Source of the DNA: Minisyncoccota bacterium
GTDB lineage: Bacteria; Patescibacteriota; Minisyncoccia; Phycocordibacterales; PALSA-1337
Assembly: GCA_041671485.1 (NCBI GenBank)
Contig: JBAZBL010000004.1
Location: 14,445 to 78,444 of the forward strand
Reading direction: 5' to 3'
DNA: 64,000 bases
Shown piece by piece: positions 506 to 56,193 of the stretch. Made by a program: the position numbers and the translations under genes. The notes beneath the pieces are model-generated. The model made no database searches and had not been told where the DNA came from. It saw only the letters and a list, made by a program, of their open reading frames with translations. Within the stretch, counting starts at the first letter, position 1; each line of letters opens with the position of its first letter.

Positions 506-763
506 TTATTCATAGATATCGTGTCCACCTGCGGAATAAAACCTAAATATATTTTTATTTAATATTTTAAATATTATTCGATATTTTTGATCCAATGAAA
601 AAGCATAGAAATCACTAAATTTACCGTGTAATTTATGAGATTTCAGACTTGGATGAAATGGGTCTTTCCTGAATATTTCTTCTTTCTTTTCTGCAATGCG
701 TTTAATTCTATCCGGAAGCTTACGATATGAGCGCTCGAATAACGAAGAATACTCAATTATCAT
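506..763 (-). CDS. Type II toxin, RelE/ParE (YafQ-like) family mRNA interferase
   Basis: 85 aa; the KLHG...F..R..YRIIF...I.F...G.HDIY pattern is typical of RelE/YafQ. It sits immediately downstream of a small RHH-like ORF. Confidence 0.65.
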   Translation of the reverse strand: MIIEYSSLFERSYRKLPDRIKRIAEKKEEIFRKDPFHPSLKSHKLHGKFSDFYAFSLDQKYRIIFKILNKNIFRFYSAGGHDIYE

Positions 764-764
764 T

Positions 765-980
765 TTAAACGAGTGATTTTAACGACGTAAGAACCTTACC
801 TTTGCCTTGCTTGAATTCTAATTCGCTTCTTTCCAAAGCACGAAGCAAACGATCTTCTTTATAAGAACGAATAAGATGTCTGATGTATTCACTAACAGAT
901 GCAAAACCACCACTTTTGGTTTCATCTCTAATCTCTTCAGCCATAGAAGCTGGTAGGGAAATGTTTATGATATTTCTCAT
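765..980 (-). CDS. Antitoxin (ribbon-helix-helix/ParD-like) partnering the RelE-like toxin
   Basis: 71 aa. The N-terminal ISLPASMAEEI beta-strand motif is RHH-like. It sits 1 nt upstream of the toxin in the same orientation. Confidence 0.5.
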   Translation of the reverse strand: MRNIINISLPASMAEEIRDETKSGGFASVSEYIRHLIRSYKEDRLLRALERSELEFKQGKGKVLTSLKSLV

Positions 981-12700: not shown

Positions 12701-14776
12701 ATGCCCTCACTCAACCTCCAACAACAAAAAGCCGTAGATACGCATACTGGTCCTGTGCTCATAATCGCAGGAGCAGGGGCGGGCAAAACGCGTGTAATCA
12801 CTCATAGAATATTGAACCTCATCAAAAGTGGTATTGCGCCTGACAGTATTCTCGCAATAACTTTTACGAATAAAGCTGCCAAGGAAATGAAAGAGAGGGT
12901 TTTCGATCTACTAGAGAATGAAAAGAGTTTGAACTTGCCAATTACAGCAGATTGGCAAAATGAAAAACCATTTGTTAGTACTTTTCATTCGCTCGGCGTA
13001 TACATCATACGAAATCATGCGAAAGAATTTGGACTGAATAGGCATTTTACGATATACGATAGAACAGATTCGAAAAGGGCCGTGAAAGAGGCAATGATGC
13101 AAGCATCTGTTGATCCAAAAAAGTTTGATCCTGGTTTTATATTAAATAAAATTTCATTGACAAAGGGTGATGGACTCGGCCGACTACAATATCTAGATAG
13201 TTCGAAGGGATTTGTAGAAGAGATAGTCGCAGAAGTTTGGGAAAAGTATGATGCTATATTGGCGAAAGACAAAGCATTGGACTTCGATGATCTACTGTCA
13301 AAAACGGCTCAACTAATTGGCAGAAATGAAAGCCTGAAAAAATTCTATGGTAATAAATGGAAGTATATCCATGTAGATGAATATCAAGATACAAATAAAG
13401 TCCAATACAATCTCATCAAATATCTAACCGAAGGACATGTCTTGTCTGGACAAGAAAAAAATATATGTGTGGTAGGTGATATAGATCAAAATATATATAG
13501 TTGGCGAGGTGCAACGATAGAAAATATTTTGAATTTCGAAAAAGATTATCCAGAATCACAGGTGATCACTCTCGAGAAAAATTATCGCTCTACGAAGATC
13601 ATCTTGGCAGCAGCAAATGATGTCATAAAGAAAAATGTAATGCGTAGAGAAAAAACTCTTTATACAGACAATGTTGAGGGAGACAAAATATCTATCCTTG
13701 TTTCTTATACAGAAGACGATGAAGCTCGCTCTATTGCAGATAATGCAAGAAAACTGATAGAGAATGGTGTTGAAGCAAAAGAAATAGCTGTTTTGTATAG
13801 AGCCAATTTCCAGTCCAGAGCATTGGAAGAAGCATTTATCAAAAAAAATGTACCATATCAACTTTTGGGTACAAAATTCTTCGAAAGAAAAGAGGTAAAA
13901 GACGTTCTTGCATACATTCGAGCTGCACTGAATCATGGTAGCTTGTTGCAAGAATCACACTCTTCAAAAGGATTGCACGAAGCGAAGCGAGGGGTGGGTG
14001 ATATTTCAGAAAATGAAAGTTGGGGAGATATAGCTAGAATAATAAATATACCAGCAAGAGGGATAGGGAAGGTAACAGTTGCAAAGATACTAAATGCAAG
14101 ATCTGATCTTGTGACTCTTCCCATGCCAATACAAGATAAAGTCAGAGAGTTTTTCAAATTGCTTGAAGATATTGGTAAAGAAATAATAGAGAAAAAGCCG
14201 TCTGAAGTAGTCAAATTTGTGATCAAAGAGACAGGCATGGAGAGGATGTACAAAAAAGGAGATAGTGAAGATGAAGAGCGTCTTTTGAATATGCAAGAAT
14301 TGGTATCTGTTGCAATGCAATACGATAGTGCAACCGTTGCGGAAGTGCGACCTCCGCAACCTCCGCATTTAGAAGGAATCGAGAAAATGCTAGAAAACGC
14401 AGCGCTTGCAACAGATCAGGACGAAATCAAGGCAGATAAAAATGCAGTTAGACTCATGACTGTACATGCATCGAAAGGGCTAGAATTTGAGCATGTATTC
14501 ATTGCAGGAATGGAACAAAACCTTTTTCCATTCAAGCATATGGATGAAGAGAAAGTGAGCAAGTCCGAGGAAGAAGAAGAGAGACGTTTATTCTATGTTG
14601 CACTTACGAGAGCGAAGAAGAGGATATGTTTGAGCTATGCAATAGTCAGAACTATTTACGGTGCACAGAGAGTGAATACTCCTTCAGAATTTATAGATGA
14701 TATAGATAAGGGACTAATCGAAGAGCAGGTAGTAGAAAAACCAACAGGTGCAAAAGCGATATTTATTGATTTTTGA
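12701..14776 (+). CDS. uvrD: ATP-dependent DNA helicase UvrD/PcrA. It carries an in-frame GC-rich hairpin (14336-14360)
   Basis: Superfamily-1 helicase motifs: GAGAGKT Walker A, DEYQDT, and the VHASKGLEF region. Confidence 0.9.
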   Translation: MPSLNLQQQKAVDTHTGPVLIIAGAGAGKTRVITHRILNLIKSGIAPDSILAITFTNKAAKEMKERVFDLLENEKSLNLPITADWQNEKPFVSTFHSLGVYIIRNHAKEFGLNRHFTIYDRTDSKRAVKEAMMQASVDPKKFDPGFILNKISLTKGDGLGRLQYLDSSKGFVEEIVAEVWEKYDAILAKDKALDFDDLLSKTAQLIGRNESLKKFYGNKWKYIHVDEYQDTNKVQYNLIKYLTEGHVLSGQEKNICVVGDIDQNIYSWRGATIENILNFEKDYPESQVITLEKNYRSTKIILAAANDVIKKNVMRREKTLYTDNVEGDKISILVSYTEDDEARSIADNARKLIENGVEAKEIAVLYRANFQSRALEEAFIKKNVPYQLLGTKFFERKEVKDVLAYIRAALNHGSLLQESHSSKGLHEAKRGVGDISENESWGDIARIINIPARGIGKVTVAKILNARSDLVTLPMPIQDKVREFFKLLEDIGKEIIEKKPSEVVKFVIKETGMERMYKKGDSEDEERLLNMQELVSVAMQYDSATVAEVRPPQPPHLEGIEKMLENAALATDQDEIKADKNAVRLMTVHASKGLEFEHVFIAGMEQNLFPFKHMDEEKVSKSEEEEERRLFYVALTRAKKRICLSYAIVRTIYGAQRVNTPSEFIDDIDKGLIEEQVVEKPTGAKAIFIDF

Positions 14777-14784
14777 TTCCTTGA

Positions 14785-14891
14785 AAGCAAGGCGCAATAT
14801 TGTATTTGTATGGAAATTAAAGTGGACGGAAGTACACAAAACACATCTAATAATTTAATTTCCATACAAATACAATATTGCGCCTTGCTTT
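14785..14891. repeat. Large perfect inverted repeat (37-bp arms, ~32-nt loop) between uvrD and rsmA
   Basis: aaagcaaggcgcaatattgtatttgtatggaaattaaa ... tttaatttccatacaaatacaatattgcgccttgcttt. Confidence 0.85.
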
Positions 14892-14902
14892 ACTAGACAT
14901 GA

Positions 14903-15742
14903 ATGACTAATATCAAAGGTAACATGAAGATCCGGCCAAAAAAATCTCTTGGGCAACATTTCCTCAATTCAAAGCATGTACTTGAACGGATTATTGATAC
15001 TGCAAAAGTCGAAAAGGGTGGGGTTGTATTGGAGATTGGACCTGGTATGGGGGTTTTGACACAAGAATTATTGAAAGCTGGTGCCAAAGTTGTTGCTATT
15101 GAAAAAGATTCTTCAGTAATTCCTTTCTTGGAGAAAAAATTCTCTAAAGAGATTGAGAACGGGCAACTGAAATTGATAGTAGATGATATATTGGAGATCA
15201 ATCTGAATAATATTGGCACTAATCTGCAATCGAAAATCATCAATTCATCATATGCAATCGTTGCAAATATACCTTATTACATAACTGGTGCAATATTGGA
15301 AAAATTCCTAGAATATGAACCCCGTCCAGAGAAAATAGTACTACTGGTACAAAAGGAGGTCGCAGAAAGAATCATAGCAAGAAATGGTAAAGAGAGCATA
15401 TTGTCCATATCTGTAAAAGCCTTTGGTACACCGAGGATGATAGCCAAAGTTCCACGCGGAGCATTCACGCCACCCCCAAATGTAGATTCTGCAATTCTTG
15501 AAATATCAGATATTTCAGATGACAGATTTTCCTCGAAAAGTGTTGAAATAAAGCACTTTTTTGACATTTTGAAAGCTGGCTTCGCTCACAAAAGAAAATT
15601 TCTGATACGAAATTTAGAGACTATTTCTAATAAAGAAAAATTAGACTCTGTTTTTACAACATTAAATATCAATAGAAAAGTTAGGGCCGAGGAGATCAAA
15701 CAAGATCAATGGCTTGATATAACTAAATTAATTTTTGAATAA
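14903..15742 (+). CDS. rsmA: 16S rRNA (adenine1518/1519-N6)-dimethyltransferase
   Basis: KSLGQHFL, VLEIGPG.G and NIPY motifs of KsgA. Confidence 0.92.
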   Translation: MTNIKGNMKIRPKKSLGQHFLNSKHVLERIIDTAKVEKGGVVLEIGPGMGVLTQELLKAGAKVVAIEKDSSVIPFLEKKFSKEIENGQLKLIVDDILEINLNNIGTNLQSKIINSSYAIVANIPYYITGAILEKFLEYEPRPEKIVLLVQKEVAERIIARNGKESILSISVKAFGTPRMIAKVPRGAFTPPPNVDSAILEISDISDDRFSSKSVEIKHFFDILKAGFAHKRKFLIRNLETISNKEKLDSVFTTLNINRKVRAEEIKQDQWLDITKLIFE

Positions 15743-21712: not shown

Positions 21713-22354
21713 CCATTGAATATGACAACCAAATCCAAAACAACACAAGACTTTGTACCCATTCAGGAAATACGTGATGGTGTAGTAATACTCCGAAATG
21801 GTGGCATGAGATCTGTCATACTCGCATCATCATTAAACTTTGCACTCAAATCGGCTGATGAACAGGCATCTATCATGTATCAATTCCAGAATTTCCTCAA
21901 TTCACTGGACTTTTCTATACAAATATTTATACAATCAAAAAAGCTAGATATCAGGCCATATATCGCTCTTTTGGAAGAGAGATACAAAGAGCAAGTATCA
22001 GAACTTATGAAGATACAGGTGCGTGAATACATAGAGTTCGTAAGAACATTTGTCGAAAATACAAATATCATGACAAAGAATTTCTTTGTTGTTATACCTT
22101 ATGATCCGCCTATCATAGGTGGTGGCAAGAATCCTATCTCAAGATATTTTCCTGGGAAAGACAATGTTGGTCCAACACCAGATGAAAAATTCCAAGAATA
22201 TCGCACCCAGCTAGAACAGAGGGTTTCTGTTGTGGAACAAGGACTAGTGAGGTGTGGTGTCCGAACTGCAGAACTTGGTACCGAAGAAGTGGTCGAACTA
22301 TTTTATAAATTATTCAATCCAGGAGAGACAGAGAAGCCGATACAAATCACATGA
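21707..22354 (+). CDS. VirB4/TraC N-terminal-domain-like protein (separate ORF)
   Basis: The F.PIQEIRDGVV.LRNGG.R.V pattern resembles the N-terminal domain of VirB4/CagE ATPases. It ends 46 nt before the ATPase ORF, in a different frame. Confidence 0.45.
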   Translation: MTPLNMTTKSKTTQDFVPIQEIRDGVVILRNGGMRSVILASSLNFALKSADEQASIMYQFQNFLNSLDFSIQIFIQSKKLDIRPYIALLEERYKEQVSELMKIQVREYIEFVRTFVENTNIMTKNFFVVIPYDPPIIGGGKNPISRYFPGKDNVGPTPDEKFQEYRTQLEQRVSVVEQGLVRCGVRTAELGTEEVVELFYKLFNPGETEKPIQIT

Positions 22355-29247: not shown

Positions 29248-29601
29248 CTATACACTATTTGGCTTTATAGTTCGACTTTGGGGTTTTGCAAAAATTGAGA
29301 TCAAGTCTTTTTTCATTTCTTCCTGTTTTATGCCAGAAATATCGCTTTTTGCAATAATGATTGCGTGTAAATTGGTTGGAATAGTATCAAAAATGCTTCC
29401 AACGGCTTCATACATCACCCTTCTTGATCGGTTTCTCTTTGATGCTTTACCTAGTATTTTCTTTGGCATAACAACTGAAACTTTGGTGTATTCTGCATCT
29501 TGTAGGACTCTTATAAGAAAAAACTTAGACGGAGTCAGTTTACCCCTCTTTATAACCTCGTCAAATTGCTTGGTATTTAACCTTTGGGATTTTTTTAGCA
29601 T
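29248..29601 (-). CDS. rnpA: Ribonuclease P protein component
   Basis: 117 aa, basic, with a conserved RNR motif; immediately follows rpmH. Confidence 0.8.
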   Translation of the reverse strand: MLKKSQRLNTKQFDEVIKRGKLTPSKFFLIRVLQDAEYTKVSVVMPKKILGKASKRNRSRRVMYEAVGSIFDTIPTNLHAIIIAKSDISGIKQEEMKKDLISIFAKPQSRTIKPNSV

Positions 29602-43775: not shown

Positions 43776-43849
43776 GCGCCCATAGCTCAGCCTGGTAGAG
43801 CACCTGCCTTTTAAGCAGAGGGTCGAAGGTTCAAATCCTTCTGGGCGCA
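43776..43849 (+). tRNA. tRNA-Lys (anticodon UUU)
   Basis: Acceptor GCGCCCA/TGGGCGC, D-arm GCTC...GAGC, anticodon loop CTTTTAA, T-arm GAAGGTTCAAATCCTTC, discriminator A; CCA is not encoded. Confidence 0.85.
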
Positions 43850-45424
43850 CCCTTCGCTAGATTTTATAAACATGTTGGAAGCTATAGGTTTCTTCGTATT
43901 TTGGCTTTTTTGTGATGCATGTTCTAGCTTCAAAAGTTGGTCAAAAAGTAGGGAGGGATTTGATTTTATTATAAGTCCATCGGTAACTTGGAAATTGTTC
44001 CAAAAGAATCCGAGATATTGTCTTTTGAGAGCGTCTGAAGCTTTTTGATATGCGTCATAAATATTTCTTGTGAGGTTCAGGATTTCTTGGGCAATATCGA
44101 CATTCACATTCTTCTGTTTCTCAAGTTCTATCAATCTATCGTCTATGTTTTGGATTTCTTGGTCTATTTCGGTCTTTACTCTCGTGAAGTCATTATCGGA
44201 AATGATATTTGAAAATAACTTTTCCTCCGCCACCTTTCTTTTGATTTCATAAGCCGTTCGTTGATTGATACATTCCTTTCTTCTGCTGTCATACGCCTTG
44301 CGCCGTTCATAGAAGATAACTTTTGCTTTGCTTATTACCATATCAATGAATGTTTGGCTGAATTCTATGGTCTTGAATTTCTCCGCGACCATGTCTTCTA
44401 GCTTGCCGACTTCAATGTATTTGCCACAACCCGACTGATTGGTGCAATGATAGTATGCTTTGCTCTTATTCAAATGCCATTCTGCGGAGTAACGACATTC
44501 ATGTGTATAACAACGGATGAAACCGCTCAAAAGCCAAGAGTATTTCCTCCTACGACAAGCGTGTTTGTTTTTCGCCATGATTACTTCTTGCACCTTGTTG
44601 AATAACTCCTCGCTTATAAGAGGTTCATGCTTTCCAATTTTGATGTGAATATCGCTCCAATGTACTTCGCCAATGAAAAACCTATTTTTCAGTGTGTTAT
44701 AGAGCTGGGCGTCAGATCGTTTACCACCATGTTTTGTCTGTAACCCTTTCTCAAACATAATGTCGTTTAGTTCGTAAACATTGTAATTGCCCGTTGCGTA
44801 CAGTTTGAACGCTTCCTTGACCAATGGTCCGTCATGTGGGTCAACGATAATACTTTTCTGACCAAAACGTCCGATAGATAAATTGGGGGTGCTGACATTT
44901 TTGTAGCCGACTGGAGCCATGCAAGGGTAGTAGCCCGCTTTGGCTTTTTCTTTCATTGTCATACTCACTTTTTCGGAAGTAATATCTCTATGAAATTGAT
45001 TCATTGACGCCATGACAGTGCCGACCATTTTGGAAGTCGCGGAATCATCCATATCTGGTTGCTGAATACACTTAACCAACACCCCATTTTTACGGAACAA
45101 ATCCATGAGGTTGAGATGGTCTAGGGTGTTACGAGCCAATCGGTCGCTGTGGACGACATAGATAGCGCCGATAGACTTTGCCAAGACAAGTTTGATGACT
45201 TGCTGAATGCCTGGTCTTTTCAAAGTACCAGCACTTTTGCCTTCATCTTTTATAACTTCTAATATTGAATATCCGTCATTTGTAGCGTCTTCGGTACAAA
45301 TATTTTCCTGTGATTCAATCGAAAGTCCTGTACTAGCTTGGTCATCAGTAGAAACACGGCAGTAAATTACTGCAGTCTTTTTGACGGCTTCTGATTGGTT
45401 TTCAACTCTTTGTATTGGTGTCAT
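43811..45424 (-). CDS. Large serine recombinase (resolvase/invertase N-domain, recombinase domain, zinc ribbon, coiled coil)
   Basis: N-terminal catalytic-Ser region (AVIYCRVSTDDQ) and a long C-terminal extension. The last 13 codons run antisense across the tRNA-Lys 3' half. Confidence 0.85.
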   Translation of the reverse strand: MTPIQRVENQSEAVKKTAVIYCRVSTDDQASTGLSIESQENICTEDATNDGYSILEVIKDEGKSAGTLKRPGIQQVIKLVLAKSIGAIYVVHSDRLARNTLDHLNLMDLFRKNGVLVKCIQQPDMDDSATSKMVGTVMASMNQFHRDITSEKVSMTMKEKAKAGYYPCMAPVGYKNVSTPNLSIGRFGQKSIIVDPHDGPLVKEAFKLYATGNYNVYELNDIMFEKGLQTKHGGKRSDAQLYNTLKNRFFIGEVHWSDIHIKIGKHEPLISEELFNKVQEVIMAKNKHACRRRKYSWLLSGFIRCYTHECRYSAEWHLNKSKAYYHCTNQSGCGKYIEVGKLEDMVAEKFKTIEFSQTFIDMVISKAKVIFYERRKAYDSRRKECINQRTAYEIKRKVAEEKLFSNIISDNDFTRVKTEIDQEIQNIDDRLIELEKQKNVNVDIAQEILNLTRNIYDAYQKASDALKRQYLGFFWNNFQVTDGLIIKSNPSLLFDQLLKLEHASQKSQNTKKPIASNMFIKSSEGCAQKDLNLRPSA

Positions 45425-48866: not shown

Positions 48867-49304
48867 GTAGAACTAAGTTATAACACATTCAAACTCGCTT
48901 TTGTATGGGTAACACTATTCTATCAAAATATTGTTTAAAAACATTAAAACAATCTTTTCTTAGAATCTAATAACTCGCTTTATCCGACATATATCATAGC
49001 TCTATCATAGGTCTTTCCAGTAACATCCAGTAACATTCATGGTTTTTTTATCTTTGAATCTTAGGTTTTCTTAGGTTCTTCAGAGTTATTCACAAAATAC
49101 TGTTTAGTGCTATTATAAGGCTACAACTGAATATGTAAGTAACCTAACCCAGTAAGCAATTGCTGGTATGGTGAAAAAGTCCTGACACGGATAAAGAACC
49201 CATCATATGGGGTTGCCGTGTCAGGCTATATCAGGAAACTGGTATAGAGGGCTTCGGTCCTCACCCATGTGGTGGGCTTTTTGCGTTCACTTCTTTAAAT
49301 ATTT

Positions 49305-51009: not shown

Positions 51010-51018
51010 ATAATTAAT

Positions 51019-51927
51019 ATGCACCTCTGGACTTACATAAAATCTCGCAACGAAACGCTACTAGTAGTGGTTATTGCTGTAGTCGTGGTTATATCACTAA
51101 TAATTTGGTTTTTCCAAGATAAGGCACCAATACAAGAGATATCCGAACAATCAATCACGAATCAAAAAGAAATCACACAAAATGATAATTTCCAAAATAG
51201 TATGTTTATTAGAATTAGAGATAAACTTACCTTTAATAACGAACCCTATCATGGTCTTGAAGACGGGAGCTACCTTCCAGTTCTACGATTACCCATAAAG
51301 TATTTCCATAAGGATGATTTTCGAGGTGGGATATGGAATACTGCGGAAATAAAAGATAGCGATTATACCAATGCTACCCTTACTGGAAATGACGCATACC
51401 AGTCATTCCCAACAACTACGATAACTTTCCATAGTTGGTCATCAGATGCTGAACCCATACTACCAATAAAAACAAAAAGTCAAATAAGAGAAATCATAAA
51501 CACATATCCCGAACTCTATGAAGACAATCTGAAACAATACGGAGAATTTACCACTCGCTTTTGGCCTAATAGATATGTTACGGAAAAACAGTACTTTGAT
51601 GTTGATAATGATGGGAAAGACGAATCAATTATCTCCCTCTGTAGTAACATGGGTGGAAATATGGATTGCCCTGATAAAATCAATATCATAAAAGGAAATC
51701 AGATTATTTTCACAGCATCGGGTGAAGGAATAGGTATTTCGTCATCGAAAACAGACGATGGATTCTATATTGAATGGACAGATCGAGATACTCCTCCGAA
51801 TTTATTTATGGGCTATTGTTGTTCCGCTGGTAATAAGAAGACAAGGTTCATATTCTATAATAATGAATTTAAACCATTATACGAACAAGAGATACGATAT
51901 TTTGAGGTAATTGATACTCAATTTTGA
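51019..51927 (+). CDS. Hypothetical signal-anchored protein, paralogous leader family member 1
   Basis: N-terminus MHLWTYIKSRNETL plus TM. Its first ~40 nt are nearly identical to those of the next gene. Confidence 0.45.
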   Translation: MHLWTYIKSRNETLLVVVIAVVVVISLIIWFFQDKAPIQEISEQSITNQKEITQNDNFQNSMFIRIRDKLTFNNEPYHGLEDGSYLPVLRLPIKYFHKDDFRGGIWNTAEIKDSDYTNATLTGNDAYQSFPTTTITFHSWSSDAEPILPIKTKSQIREIINTYPELYEDNLKQYGEFTTRFWPNRYVTEKQYFDVDNDGKDESIISLCSNMGGNMDCPDKINIIKGNQIIFTASGEGIGISSSKTDDGFYIEWTDRDTPPNLFMGYCCSAGNKKTRFIFYNNEFKPLYEQEIRYFEVIDTQF

Positions 51928-51944
51928 ATCCCTAACAATCAAAC

Positions 51945-53147
51945 ATGCACCTCTGGACTTACATAAAATCTCGCAACGAAACATTACGGTTGGCAGTTAT
52001 TGCTATGGTCATAATTACCTTCTTAATCATTTGGTCTTCAATACATAAGACGCAAAATTCAATTTCTTCTGATTTCAAATGTCCCAATGACTACAAAACA
52101 ATTGAGGAGTATGTTGAGAGTCTCGCTAAATGGATTCGAGTTACAATGGATGAAAATCCCAAAATAACACCTGATGAGATACAGAAATTAAGAGATGAAG
52201 AAATTGCAGAACATAAATGCAGTTTAAGTAATTGGCTATCGGAAGATGATATGGCTATGTTAGATAAATCAGTAACTTCTTTGACAGAAAGCACGACTAC
52301 TACAAATGAACAGATTTTCAACTTGAATATTACGATAGCTAGAACACCGTATGAGCTTTCCGATTATTCACCAAATGGAGATTACTGGATAGCCAATTAT
52401 TATTCAGCAACCACATCATCCAACCAATTTAATCCTAAAATTATTGTTTTATATGTTCCAATCTATTCCACCTACGCAAACTCTGATGGAACAGAAGTTA
52501 CAGCGAAAAATGTAGCAGATAATTTTGCTTATCACACAAAAGAAGACGGTTTCACACTTCTCAACCCACTTTCATTTACTGACCCCAAAAAACCTGATAC
52601 AGATATTTATGTACTTACATCCTATAAATTACGCATGGATGAAGATTACAGCCCAATTTTCTTCACAGTTATTCGAAAGACCAAGTCTGGAGTTTTTGCT
52701 GTGCTTTATGATAAGGAAATTGAAAATGGTATAGATGAAACTTTAACAAGACAGAAAATACTAGAATGGCTAAATATCCATACAAAATACATGGAACAAA
52801 TTGAGAAATTCGATCCATTTGATTTCCTCCATGAAGACATGACATCATATTCTAATATCTCACAACATCAAGAAGTTAATATAACTGGAAGAGTTGTAGA
52901 TTGGATGACCTATGGAAGAATCTTGGTAAAAAATTCAGTTTCTGACTATCCGTTTATGTATTTTATAGCAGAACCAGATGATGTAATTTCTGAGGGTACT
53001 TCACGGTATAGTCCAACAACCAATGCAATCAAAAATGAAGCTACTATTAAAATAATTGGAGAGATAATTGATGGATGTTTTTGGAATGAAAAAAAATATG
53101 ATGGCTGTGTGCCATGGGTTACAATAAAGAGTTTACAACAAATATAA
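51945..53147 (+). CDS. Hypothetical signal-anchored protein, paralogous leader family member 2
   Basis: Same MHLWTYIKSRNETL leader with a different 380-aa body. Confidence 0.45.
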   Translation: MHLWTYIKSRNETLRLAVIAMVIITFLIIWSSIHKTQNSISSDFKCPNDYKTIEEYVESLAKWIRVTMDENPKITPDEIQKLRDEEIAEHKCSLSNWLSEDDMAMLDKSVTSLTESTTTTNEQIFNLNITIARTPYELSDYSPNGDYWIANYYSATTSSNQFNPKIIVLYVPIYSTYANSDGTEVTAKNVADNFAYHTKEDGFTLLNPLSFTDPKKPDTDIYVLTSYKLRMDEDYSPIFFTVIRKTKSGVFAVLYDKEIENGIDETLTRQKILEWLNIHTKYMEQIEKFDPFDFLHEDMTSYSNISQHQEVNITGRVVDWMTYGRILVKNSVSDYPFMYFIAEPDDVISEGTSRYSPTTNAIKNEATIKIIGEIIDGCFWNEKKYDGCVPWVTIKSLQQI

Positions 53148-53653: not shown

Positions 53654-53769
53654 GATACTTTAAGTTAGTTTAAATTCTCATACTTATTCAAACAATCAAA
53701 CTAATATTTAGATTATAAAGTAAGGGTGGGGATAATCAACCGAATAACAAAAATGTAGAATTCTTTGAT

Positions 53770-54273
53770 ATGATACTGTATATGATAAGACTTTGGTTTT
53801 TGGTTAGATATTTTGTCTATTTTCCAGCCACAAATGGTTATTGGGCGAACCAAAATGATGCGATAGAGAGGGATAAATTCATATGGTATATTGTTACGGA
53901 TAAGTTACTTTTTCAAAATATTATAGATACTATTAGAGAGTTCTATTTTAGAAAAATACAAGGACACTATAACAATGAGACAGATGAGGTTGTTATGGAG
54001 AGATTGCGTAGGCGTCTAAAAAAGATTGATGATCTTATTGATAGAGCTATTTCGAAAAATTACTTGGTACCCATAAATAAGAATGGATATCATCAAAATC
54101 TAAAAATTGAGTGGCAGGGAAAGAATTTTATTAAACTGTTACCGTTCTGTGAGGCGTGTCTAAAAGAATATGGGCAATCCGTGACTATCATTATTGCTTT
54201 GTTAGGATCTGGAATAATTTCGGTGATTATTACTAATTGGGGTAATATAATTTCATATTTTCATTCATTATAA
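53770..54273 (+). CDS. Hypothetical protein with a C-terminal TM helix
   Basis: 167-aa ORF. Confidence 0.3.
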   Translation: MILYMIRLWFLVRYFVYFPATNGYWANQNDAIERDKFIWYIVTDKLLFQNIIDTIREFYFRKIQGHYNNETDEVVMERLRRRLKKIDDLIDRAISKNYLVPINKNGYHQNLKIEWQGKNFIKLLPFCEACLKEYGQSVTIIIALLGSGIISVIITNWGNIISYFHSL

Positions 54274-54330
54274 AAAGTATATTGATTGATTTGCTGTTTT
54301 AAAATAAAGTTGTATAGTTAAATTACCAAA

Positions 54331-54612
54331 ATGCTAGAAGAAAAAATAATAAAAATTATCTTGAAAGTTGCTGGAATTTGTTTGATTTTCTTAATCATAT
54401 CTCCTTTCTTTATTACACCAGAAACGGGAAGTACACTTGAAACTATTATGCTTATACCTGTCATTCCAGTAATAATGGCAGGCGTGATTTTGGTTGTGCT
54501 TAGTCGTTCTCGTCACGATACAATACTTCCTCCATATCTTCGTGTAGTTGGTCTTATTCTCTTTGGACTATGGATTTTGTCATTCTTCATTGATAACCCT
54601 TTTCGTGGATAG
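54331..54612 (+). CDS. Small membrane protein
   Basis: 93 aa, three hydrophobic helices. Confidence 0.3.
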   Translation: MLEEKIIKIILKVAGICLIFLIISPFFITPETGSTLETIMLIPVIPVIMAGVILVVLSRSRHDTILPPYLRVVGLILFGLWILSFFIDNPFRG

Positions 54613-54619
54613 GATAATA

Positions 54620-54910
54620 GTGACGAAGTTATCTAAGATCTGCTATAGTTTATTCGGAGTAGTGAGAGTTGGTGTTTTTCGGTCTTAGATTGAAAACAAT
54701 GTTGTGTACTAAGTCCGTCATCCGCCTTTGTGCGGTGGATTTGCCCATTAGGGCGAAAGGTGCGGTTAAAAGCAACAGTGACCTACTGGGTACATCAAGA
54801 GTTCAGCCGAGCATAATGGGAGCATAAATGAGGGCTGAAAGGCGCAAGAGGATTTATCCTCCCGCTTGCTACTCCCACAAAGGACTTCTCTGACGAGGAG
54901 TTTTTTGTTT
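54620..54910 (+). ncRNA. rnpB: Candidate RNase P RNA-like structured RNA (reduced), or another GC-rich ncRNA
   Basis: Three motifs appear in the order CR-I, CR-IV, CR-V of bacterial RNase P RNA: AAGUCCG (54711), AGGGCGAAAGGUGCGGUUAAAAGC (54750) and ACAAAGGACUU (54887). It also has several perfect hairpins and ends in a T6 run. Confidence 0.35.
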
Positions 54911-55272
54911 GCTCACTTATTAAATCCTATGTATGGCAGAAAAATAGAGATTGAGATATTTCTCCTTGAATTCCATCTCTGATTGCGAAATCATTTACGC
55001 ATTATTTCTTTTTATGGTGGACCTCACGTTCGGTGGTACGAGGATGCTTAAGAGCGTATGCCTCCCTCACTCTTCTTCCTGTTACTGAACTTCGATAGAA
55101 TATAATCACCTTGTTCATTTTGGTTTTGGATTAAATATTTTGATAATTCATCTATTGATTTTTATCAGAGACGGAATTCAGGGAAAAATTAACAATTTGG
55201 TCCAACACCCATGGTGTATTATACCATTTTTATCTATTTGCGATAAGTACAAATTTGTTGTAATGTTGCTTT

Positions 55273-56193
55273 ATGTCTATTTTCCAGATCCAAAATTCAA
55301 AGCTGATCGCTATAAGGGATAAAGATGTAGAACTTGAGAAAGATATTCAGAAATTGACGGAAGAAAATCTTGAAACCGTATTTGGTTTACAATTTATCAG
55401 AACGGAGTTTCCTCTTGGTGATTTTAGAATCGATACTCTTGCTTTTGACAATGAGTCAAATTCATTCGTGATTATTGAATACAAACGAGATAGGAGTTTT
55501 AGTGTTATTGATCAAGGATATTCTTATCTTGCTCTAATGCTTAATAATAAAGCAGACTTTATTCTTGAATACAACGAAAAACTTCAGACCAATCTTAGAA
55601 AAGATGATGTAGATTGGTCTCAGTCCCGTGTTATTTTTCTGGCAAAGTCATTCAATCGGTATCAGCAAAATGCTATCAATTTTCGCGACCTTCCAATTGA
55701 ATTGTGGGAAGTAAAGAACTATGACAATTCAACTATTCTTTACAATCAACTTCTTTCTCCTGAAGCGAAAGAATCAGTAAAATCTATCACTAGAAATAAG
55801 ACTATAGAAAACGTAACCAAAGAGGTAAAAGTTTATACTATTGAAGATCATACTAATCATATAAATAAAGATACTAGGGACCTTTTTGAAATGATTCGTG
55901 AAAAGATTTTAGCTTTAGGTGGTAATATTGAAGAGAGACCTAAGAAAAAATATATCGCATATAGAACACATCAAGCATTTTTATATGTGCACATTCAACA
56001 GTCACAAATAAAATTACATATCATTATTGGTAAATCAAAATTAAACGACCCCAAAGGAATCACTAGGGATGTTTCAAAAGTTGGTCATTATGGTGGGGGG
56101 GTAACTGAAATTGTTCTAACTAAAATGGAAGAAATTTCATATATAATGACGTTAATTGAGCAGTCTTTTAATTCTTCTAAAAGTAGTTTCTAG
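55273..56193 (+). CDS. PD-(D/E)xK nuclease-fold protein with a C-terminal DUF5655-like domain
   Basis: The RIDTLAFD...VIIEYKRD motif places D...E.K in a restriction-endonuclease-like core. Confidence 0.45.
   Translation: MSIFQIQNSKLIAIRDKDVELEKDIQKLTEENLETVFGLQFIRTEFPLGDFRIDTLAFDNESNSFVIIEYKRDRSFSVIDQGYSYLALMLNNKADFILEYNEKLQTNLRKDDVDWSQSRVIFLAKSFNRYQQNAINFRDLPIELWEVKNYDNSTILYNQLLSPEAKESVKSITRNKTIENVTKEVKVYTIEDHTNHINKDTRDLFEMIREKILALGGNIEERPKKKYIAYRTHQAFLYVHIQQSQIKLHIIIGKSKLNDPKGITRDVSKVGHYGGGVTEIVLTKMEEISYIMTLIEQSFNSSKSSF

Follow-up and report, generated by a model that had tools for sequence, protein, structure and literature searches.

We analysed a 64,000-nt stretch of DNA (the window; all coordinates are positions in it) from a Candidatus Paceibacterota (so assigned by NCBI's name for an identical neighbouring protein), which belongs to the candidate phyla radiation (CPR), and concentrated on a GC-rich element at 54620-54910 that an initial annotation had proposed to be a strongly reduced RNase P RNA gene (rnpB). 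The element lies in a 660-nt gap between a 93-aa open reading frame (ORF; 54331-54612) and a 306-aa ORF (55273-56193), and, as that annotation had held, the stretch is non-coding, no ORF of at least 60 aa covering it in the ORF list of the window. The signals on which the proposal was built were all found where it had placed them: AAGTCCG at 54711, AGGGCGAAAGGTGCGGTTAAAAGC at 54750 and ACAAAGGACTT at 54877; the hairpins GCCCATTAGGGC at 54743 and GAGGATTTATCCTC at 54848; a U-run ending at about 54908; and a local GC content of 0.44-0.51 over 54660-54880 as compared to 0.30-0.36 in the flanks. This is a structured, GC-rich, terminator-ended non-coding element beyond what chance would produce, conserved in four other contigs, and we consider it very probable that this is a genuine gene for a structured RNA, standing by itself and distinct from rnpB.

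The element sits in a variable island with tRNA-Lys (43776-43849), a large serine recombinase and three minus-strand genes, then a LOOT RNA and a run of orphan genes, and, beyond the element, a defence cluster, PDC-S18 plus a type II restriction-modification (RM) system, made up of a PDC-S18/DUF5655 gene, an EcoRI-type methylase and a GmrSD/HNH nuclease.

Predicted transcript and fold

The plus strand of the element folds at -97.4 kcal/mol, with a z-score of -3.3 computed against dinucleotide shuffles. A consensus scan places a promoter-like region on the plus strand at 54620-54649, with a weak -35 (GTGACG) and an extended -10 (TG-C-TATAGT) whose hexamer, 54644-54649, stands about 6 nt ahead of the predicted 5' end. 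The predicted transcript (54656-54908, +) extends from the start of a closing helix to the end of a terminator U-tract, and a family covariance model (CM R1) that we built from homologues in JGI metagenomes matches the window at 54653-54913 with 286 bits. Its body comprises about 230 nt of folded RNA followed by the terminator hairpin.

The closing helix, P1, pairs 54656-54666 (GGAGUAGUGAG, +) with 54865-54875 (CUUGCUACUCC, +) at a pair probability of 0.87; across the homologues 97.6% of its cells are paired, and one A-U pair has changed on both sides to G-C. Inside it, a U-rich strand at 54674-54685 (+) is predicted to form a long-range helix with 54832-54843 (GGGCUGAAAGGC), for which all cells (100%) are paired in the three sequences having both strands, with three one-sided changes; its pair probability is 0.99 in the homologue L044, 0.8-0.9 in L026 and 0.31 in the window, and it is impossible in L036, from which the 3' strand is absent.

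The conserved core (54702-54798, +; pair probabilities 0.8-0.95) consists of an irregular stem, in which 54702-54721 pair with 54778-54798, and of a four-way junction on top of it, whose plus-strand hairpins lie at 54722-54738 (5 bp, 7-nt loop), 54741-54756 (6-7 bp, 4-nt loop) and 54761-54774 (3 bp, 8-nt loop), the third with a T-loop-like GGUUAAAA loop. AAGUCCG (54711-54717) is inside this domain, and the helix 54717-21/54778-82 shows a double change from U-A to C-G. The junction strands and the third hairpin make up a 29-nt block, GGCGAAAGGUGCGGUUAAAAGCAACAGUG (54752-54780, +), that is identical in all four distinct sequences and covers the stretch that had been likened to RNase P. Downstream lies a variable 3' subdomain (54803-54867, +), which contains a pair of small hairpins, then the 3' strand belonging to the long-range helix, and a hairpin of variable length at 54848-54861. 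The intrinsic terminator (54877-54908, +; pair probability 0.99) is a 13-14-bp hairpin, ACAAAGGACUUCUC / GAGGAGUUUUUUGU, followed by the U-tract; it is paired in 100% of cells in every homologue, with two double and two single compensatory changes, and it contains GGACUU (54882-54887), which had been read as the 3' strand of P4.

Homologues and comparative evidence

As a search pattern we used GAAAGGNNNGGTTAAAANNNACAG, composed of predicted loop and junction bases, which is unique in the window and expected zero times by chance. It recovered true homologues on four contigs in JGI metagenomes, with 81-92% identity: L044 and L039, whose RNAs are identical (86.5% over 266 nt); L026 (81.5%); and L036 (88.9%), in which the equivalent of window positions 54803-54866 is missing. 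The four loci thus add three distinct sequences, and the comparative set consists of four (window, L044, L026 and L036), three of them fairly close; contigs of the same organism are 100% identical to the element and carry no covariation information. The family model scored the metagenome loci at 197-297 bits and gave no further match in the approximately 385 kb of sequence examined, and the copy number is one in the approximately 81 kb of host genome covered, to which the contig extensions L050 and L052 belong.

Other collections yielded no relatives. The same pattern in 185,579 species genomes gave ten chance matches and no homologue. Among viral contigs, an exact 24-mer had no match, the two-block pattern AAGTCCG...GGGNGAAAGGTGCGG had two chance matches in a G-rich repeat context, and two further patterns had chance matches only; blastn of the whole intergenic gap against phages and plasmids was empty. 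Rfam 15 was applied to the window by cmscan at gathering score and then at permissive thresholds (E<=10 on 801 nt, E<=10 on the 268-nt element alone and E<=5 on the whole window): at the element, the gathering-score and 801-nt scans returned only chance long non-coding RNA matches or nothing, and the 268-nt element alone matched no family at E<=10, those of the tRNA clan included. ARAGORN found three ordinary tRNAs elsewhere in the window and none at the element, and a literature search on structured RNAs specific to CPR or to defence islands found nothing matching.

What the loci have in common is the RNA itself, with no more than about 45 nt upstream and about 30 nt downstream: conservation starts at the -10 box, stops about 30 nt beyond the U-tract, and outside these bounds the loci are unrelated. 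The position of the -10 box is kept in all homologues (TATAGT / TAAGAT / TATGAT); it is accompanied in L044 and L036 by a TTGAAA -35 at 17 nt, while in L026 it is of the TGn extended kind. When the structure model was tested against slid controls, 96.7% of its cells were paired with five doubly compensated pairs, as compared to 42-55% and none in the controls. Because 45 of the 241 paired cells (19%) are G-U, the functional strand is the plus strand and the molecule is RNA rather than a DNA element.

The core domain is the best-conserved region (84-94% identity) and is kept in the shortened L036 variant, whereas the 3' subdomain (69-80%) is wholly absent there; in L026 the hairpin at 54848-54861 is replaced by one 26 nt longer. 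Single-nucleotide indels and changes of frame between homologues exclude a conserved ORF, and the four open frames, joined as one protein query, found no protein homologue.

Comparison with RNase P RNA

The case for rnpB consisted of three weak sequence resemblances in the right order, together with rnpA, the gene for the protein subunit, at 29248. That gene is indeed present (29248-29601; TIGR00188, 44.7 bits against a cut-off of 38.35). The specific resemblances do not exceed chance. The window contains AAGTCCG three times, and GGACTT is expected by chance about 0.05 times per 200 nt. The likeness to E. coli rnpB, examined on the annotated MG1655 gene, held insofar as 21 of 25 aligned columns match positions 173-197, but its local alignment score of 26 is equalled at two unrelated places in the window, 22095-22113 (minus strand) and 49149-49166. 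Moreover, we take segment 173-197 to belong to the specificity domain (J12/13-P13 region) and not to CR-IV, with which the stretch had been compared.

The covariance-model check that had been proposed for the element returned nothing at any threshold applied: none of the RNase P models (bact_a, bact_b, archaeal, nuclear, type T) matched at gathering score, at E<=10 on 801 nt or with the 268 nt as sole input, or at E<=5 over the whole window, where the E<=10 cut-off is stricter than the threshold of about 5 bits that some CPR rnpB genes required. RNase P RNAs of CPR bacteria are diverged, often lack some helices and fall below default Rfam thresholds; among 35 complete CPR genomes there were 10 in which a diverged rnpB came to light only with the RF00010 threshold set at about 5 bits (Lui et al. 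2021, PMC8172020). Because CPR rnpB can escape model thresholds in this way, we sought independent comparative evidence.

This evidence refutes the proposed P4 pairing of AAGUCC with GGACUU. AAGUCC is invariant, while its supposed partner changes to GAACUU and GAAUUC; in the alignment (columns 60-65 against 260-265) the window alone has C-G as its central pair, the other three of the four sequences having C-A there, one more pair is broken in L026, and there are no compensatory changes. The 3' bases covary within the terminator instead. The topology is also wrong: the putative P4 3' strand (54882-87) falls past the end of the closing helix (54656-66/54865-75), and beyond that helix there is nothing but the terminator. 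In RNase P RNA, the 3' strand of P4 lies inside P1/P2, whose own 3' strands end the molecule, and a P4 3' strand located 3' of the closing helix is therefore the reverse of that arrangement. ACNNNANNNNGNNUA, the universal signature of CR-V (which we confirmed at position 347 of E. coli rnpB), occurs neither in the window copy nor in L044, L026 or L036, and L036 is without 65 nt of the region that would need to hold P15/CR-IV. In the reverse direction, the family model run with its filters off found no match in the body of E. coli rnpB.

The distribution is equally unlike that of rnpB. The nearest relative lacks the element at the syntenic locus, the species genomes searched do not contain it either, and an RNA that is 81-92% identical amid unrelated flanks is not what vertical inheritance of a housekeeping RNA would produce. 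A canonical rnpB was not found at permissive thresholds in the approximately 81 kb of window and extensions, which is uninformative for the rest of the genome. The failure of P4, the absence of CR-V, the position of the putative P4 3' strand outside the closing helix and the other comparative results together lead us to reject rnpB; the idea of a strongly reduced form finds no support, and we conclude with high confidence that the element is something other than the RNase P catalytic RNA. The fallback offered by the initial annotation, a structured RNA borne by a mobile element, is the reading that the evidence supports.

Genomic neighbourhoods

The homologue loci are low in GC (30-37%, as compared to 48% for the RNA) and, by Pfam and PADLOC annotation, differ in their neighbours, which are for the most part restriction or defence genes. 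L044 and L039 have an Eco57I-type RM enzyme, an AAA_15/AbiEii-like ATPase and a truncated DnaA-like ORF; L036 has a ResIII/SNF2 helicase; L026 has small orphan genes. The sole protein comparable between loci is 34% identical. For three loci (the window, L044 and L026) the next gene is known, and each time it is encoded on the same strand as the RNA; these downstream genes (PDC-S18/DUF5655, a major facilitator superfamily (MFS) transporter and a 62-aa orphan) begin 130-560 nt past the terminator.

The DnaA-like ORF of L044 (7722-8267) and L039 (1681-2277) encodes only the AAA+ domain and is 34% identical to the DnaA of the window. Its homology is lost about 20 nt before the promoter segment of the RNA, within which its stop codon falls; the junction looks like the product of a recombination that truncated a dnaA-like gene.

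In the nearest relative (contigs L020-L024, approximately 79% nucleotide identity), the block 53724-54957, which holds two small genes and the RNA, is missing from the syntenic locus; the 167-aa gene of this block that adjoins the RNA is a complete orphan. There the PDC-S18 operon retains its own leader with an inverted repeat, without the RNA. A linkage of the RNA to PDC-S18 was considered and rejected, since loci of an 85%-identical PDC-S18 homologue have no RNA. The inverted repeat of the window (about 54958-55186) is an imperfect 20-nt one, CCTTGAATTCCATCTCTGAT / ATCAGAGACGGAATTCAGGG, matching at 18 of 20 positions, with arms at about 54962-54983 and 55165-55186; it encloses about 180 nt, including a GC-rich patch at 55017-55080, and stands immediately upstream of the PDC-S18/RM operon. 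Its arms and several blocks of the leader are conserved in the relative's PDC-S18 loci, and it could be an invertible promoter, a long hairpin of a 5' untranslated region or the remnant of a miniature inverted-repeat transposable element (MITE).

The serine-recombinase element of the window is 5-10 kb from the RNA. The 3' end of the recombinase ORF (43811-45424, -) shares about 39 nt with tRNA-Lys (+), in the 3' half of the latter. A direct repeat of the tRNA-Lys end, as an attachment (att) site would provide, was sought as the far boundary of the island and found nowhere else in the window. Besides three tRNAs, the only family that cmscan identified in the window is LOOT RNA (RF03000; 49141-49262, +; 85 bits), located at the far end of a block of about 5.4 kb, containing the serine recombinase and three genes, between tRNA-Lys and a 198-aa gene; in the relative (L021), tRNA-Lys directly adjoins the homologue of that gene. 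The LOOT motif is thereby placed in a Paceibacterota genome, on an apparent integrative element. A second LOOT RNA (82 bits) occurs in L026 at 674-793 (-), about 90 nt from the new RNA and in divergent orientation, and LOOT is thus near the new RNA in two of the four distinct loci. Predicted intermolecular pairing between the two RNAs was no better than in shuffled controls.

Two further features of the window lie apart from the RNA. The adjacent orphan genes 51019-51927 and 51945-53147 have a near-identical N-terminus (MHLWTYIKSRNETL...) in common, as well as a 41-nt repeat whose copies (51016-51056 and 51942-51982) match at 97.6%, which suggests a recent partial duplication within the island. 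A sub-threshold Rfam match to the plant microRNA precursor mir-5014 (14786-14889, -; 59 bits, E 4e-10, gathering score 101), in the intergenic gap 14776-14903, is almost certainly just a long, near-perfect hairpin.

Interpretation

The element has a putative promoter and terminator of its own, lacks coding capacity, shows compensated structure and keeps its form whatever its neighbours, as would be expected in general of a stand-alone small RNA (sRNA) gene. The explanation we favour, and consider rather probable, is that it represents an uncatalogued family of mobile structured sRNAs in a CPR island, acting in trans and probably by binding or decoying a protein. Such an RNA would be transcribed from its own sigma-70-type promoter to its own intrinsic terminator, signals for both being conserved across homologues. 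As thermodynamics and limited covariation suggest, it would fold into a closing helix in which the 5' end meets the 3' end, a long-range helix, and a core built on a four-way junction, the strands of which, like one hairpin loop, are invariant. Because the flanks differ in every locus and homology is limited to the RNA, at 81-92% identity, it may well have moved horizontally as a unit of about 300 bp among unrelated low-GC genomes or mobile elements. Its tertiary fold could then serve in trans, in the conflict between mobile element and host, as a decoy or scaffold that binds or sequesters a protein or an RNA-processing factor. Binding or sequestering through the invariant junction module appears to us the likeliest mechanism, a choice made with low confidence, and the trans-acting binder or decoy mechanism, judged by itself, is doubtful.

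Several points weigh against this explanation. With only four distinct sequences, three of them fairly close, covariation is thin. RNAalifold favours a different pairing for part of the core, in which one column pair (columns 20/147) gives support as A-U/G-C/G-U and the pairs are otherwise invariant; the inner core stem is broken in L026, and the ensembles of the individual sequences disagree over the AAGUCC region. The core pairing is thus partly ambiguous, four sequences being too few to settle the fold. The decoy or scaffold idea is drawn solely from the presence of a stand-alone, complex RNA in conflict-type neighbourhoods, with expression and a partner protein both presumed, and tRNA mimicry specifically receives no support from ARAGORN or the tRNA model. 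The same-strand gene downstream in three loci leaves some room for a role in cis.

Such a role would be that of a leader, a riboswitch or attenuator whose terminator controls the downstream gene, and a complex, aptamer-like fold directly before an intrinsic terminator is what one would expect of it. However, the downstream genes are unrelated to one another and distant from the terminator, and PDC-S18 has a separate conserved inverted-repeat leader, placed between it and the RNA, that is kept in the relative without the RNA. No riboswitch model matches, and there is no conserved anti-terminator, the sole candidate pairing (AAGUCC/GGACUU) not being conserved. We therefore regard a cis-acting leader as unlikely.

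One could also envision another housekeeping RNA, a diverged 6S, signal recognition particle (SRP) or transfer-messenger RNA (tmRNA)-like molecule, that looks mobile because islands integrate alongside it. A conserved RNA with unrelated flanks and with islands and defence genes alongside is the pattern of a tRNA or tmRNA integration hot spot, and CPR structural RNAs are often atypical (PMC8172020). Against this, no 6S, SRP, tmRNA or tRNA family of Rfam matches at E<=10, ARAGORN is negative, and the invariant motif is in none of the 185,579 species representatives. In addition, the RNA is missing from the nearest relative's syntenic locus, in a block whose neighbour gene is an orphan, and one member (L036) has lost a third of the molecule. 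This origin is distinctly unlikely.

A more specific form of the explanation we favour has an equally slim chance: the invariant junction and T-loop-like module may dock a tRNA or a tRNA-processing or tRNA-targeting factor, and so serve as decoy or cofactor in defence or counter-defence, possibly with LOOT. It would amount to a convergent or borrowed RNase P specificity-domain idea, realised in a horizontally transferred, mobile-element-borne RNA in CPR. If true, no member of an RNA-based conflict system specific to CPR would have been given a functional place before this one, and LOOT would gain a context.

That the element is an orphaned guide or scaffold RNA parted from its protein (the omega-RNA of IscB/TnpB, a bridge RNA, a retron msr-msd or a tracrRNA-like molecule) is improbable. 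It is mobile, highly structured and about 200-250 nt long, it occurs in mobile-element and defence contexts, and a serine-recombinase element is not far off in the window; but no IscB, TnpB, IS110, reverse transcriptase or Cas gene stands beside any of the five copies, neither HEARO nor another Rfam family matches, and there are no repeats or arrays nearby. Furthermore, it has its own promoter and terminator, and both its ends are sealed in the closing helix, which leaves no variable guide-like end.

A unit acting at the level of DNA (an att site, a MITE or a replication origin), with the RNA fold incidental, is highly improbable. The discrete unit of about 300 bp, with sharp homology boundaries and a junction in L044 that truncates the dnaA-like ORF, would suit it. 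On the other strand or in a DNA cruciform, however, the 45 G-U cells would be C-A mismatches. The compensatory changes maintain RNA helices, the positions of promoter and terminator are conserved, alignment finds no terminal inverted or direct repeats at the boundaries, and there is one copy in 81 kb. Finally, a strongly reduced, diverged rnpB of this CPR bacterium has next to no probability, on the comparative grounds given above, in spite of its CPR host, an rnpA gene, the want of a canonical rnpB in the 81 kb and a four-way junction after AAGUCCG that we take to be loosely like the P7-P10 cruciform.

Patescibacteria have tiny genomes with little non-coding DNA, in which a highly structured 250-nt RNA kept at 81-92% identity in unrelated contexts presumably pays its way. 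The finding lengthens the short list of complex orphan RNAs by a family not catalogued so far and ties the orphan LOOT motif to Paceibacterota and to serine-recombinase and defence islands. It also has a practical side: CPR rnpB is hard to detect, look-alikes carry a risk of mis-calling, and a comparative test of P4 against terminator quickly separates the two. Consisting of four sequences with no assigned function, the family is at present of value as a lead rather than a discovery.

Comparison with known systems

The new RNA shares with bacterial RNase P RNA (RF00010/RF00011, including the CPR forms, PMC8172020) a GC-rich, multi-helix architecture in a CPR genome and ends joined by a terminal helix. 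The likeness extends to AAGUCCG, to the 21/25 match with E. coli rnpB 173-197 and to a four-way junction that follows the heptamer and bears two short hairpins. In contrast to RNase P RNA, it has no covariance-model match, no conserved P4 and no CR-V, the P4 3' strand would lie outside P1, in the terminator, its 3' third is dispensable, and its distribution is sporadic and non-syntenic. To our knowledge, it is also about 100 nt shorter than the smallest bacterial RNase P RNAs.

From the Y RNAs (including YrlA), 6S RNA and tRNA it is separated by the lack of an Rfam match, of an rsr/Ro gene nearby and of core hairpins whose sizes would fit D, anticodon and T arms. Like Y RNAs and 6S RNA, it is a stand-alone gene whose 5' and 3' ends pair in a stem around a conserved structured module. 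In YrlA this module is tRNA-like, and the T-loop-like hairpin GGUUAAAAGC of the new RNA, as we see it, recalls protein-binding or decoy modules such as that of YrlA.

LOOT RNA (RF03000) is an orphan structured sRNA known from environmental sequences, of unknown function. The new RNA is similar to it neither in sequence nor by model, is twice as long, and differs in having a terminal helix and a junction core. Both, however, are stand-alone, multi-hairpin, GC-rich sRNAs; they share the island in the window, lie about 90 nt apart in L026, and are found in the same kind of host and the same kind of neighbourhood.

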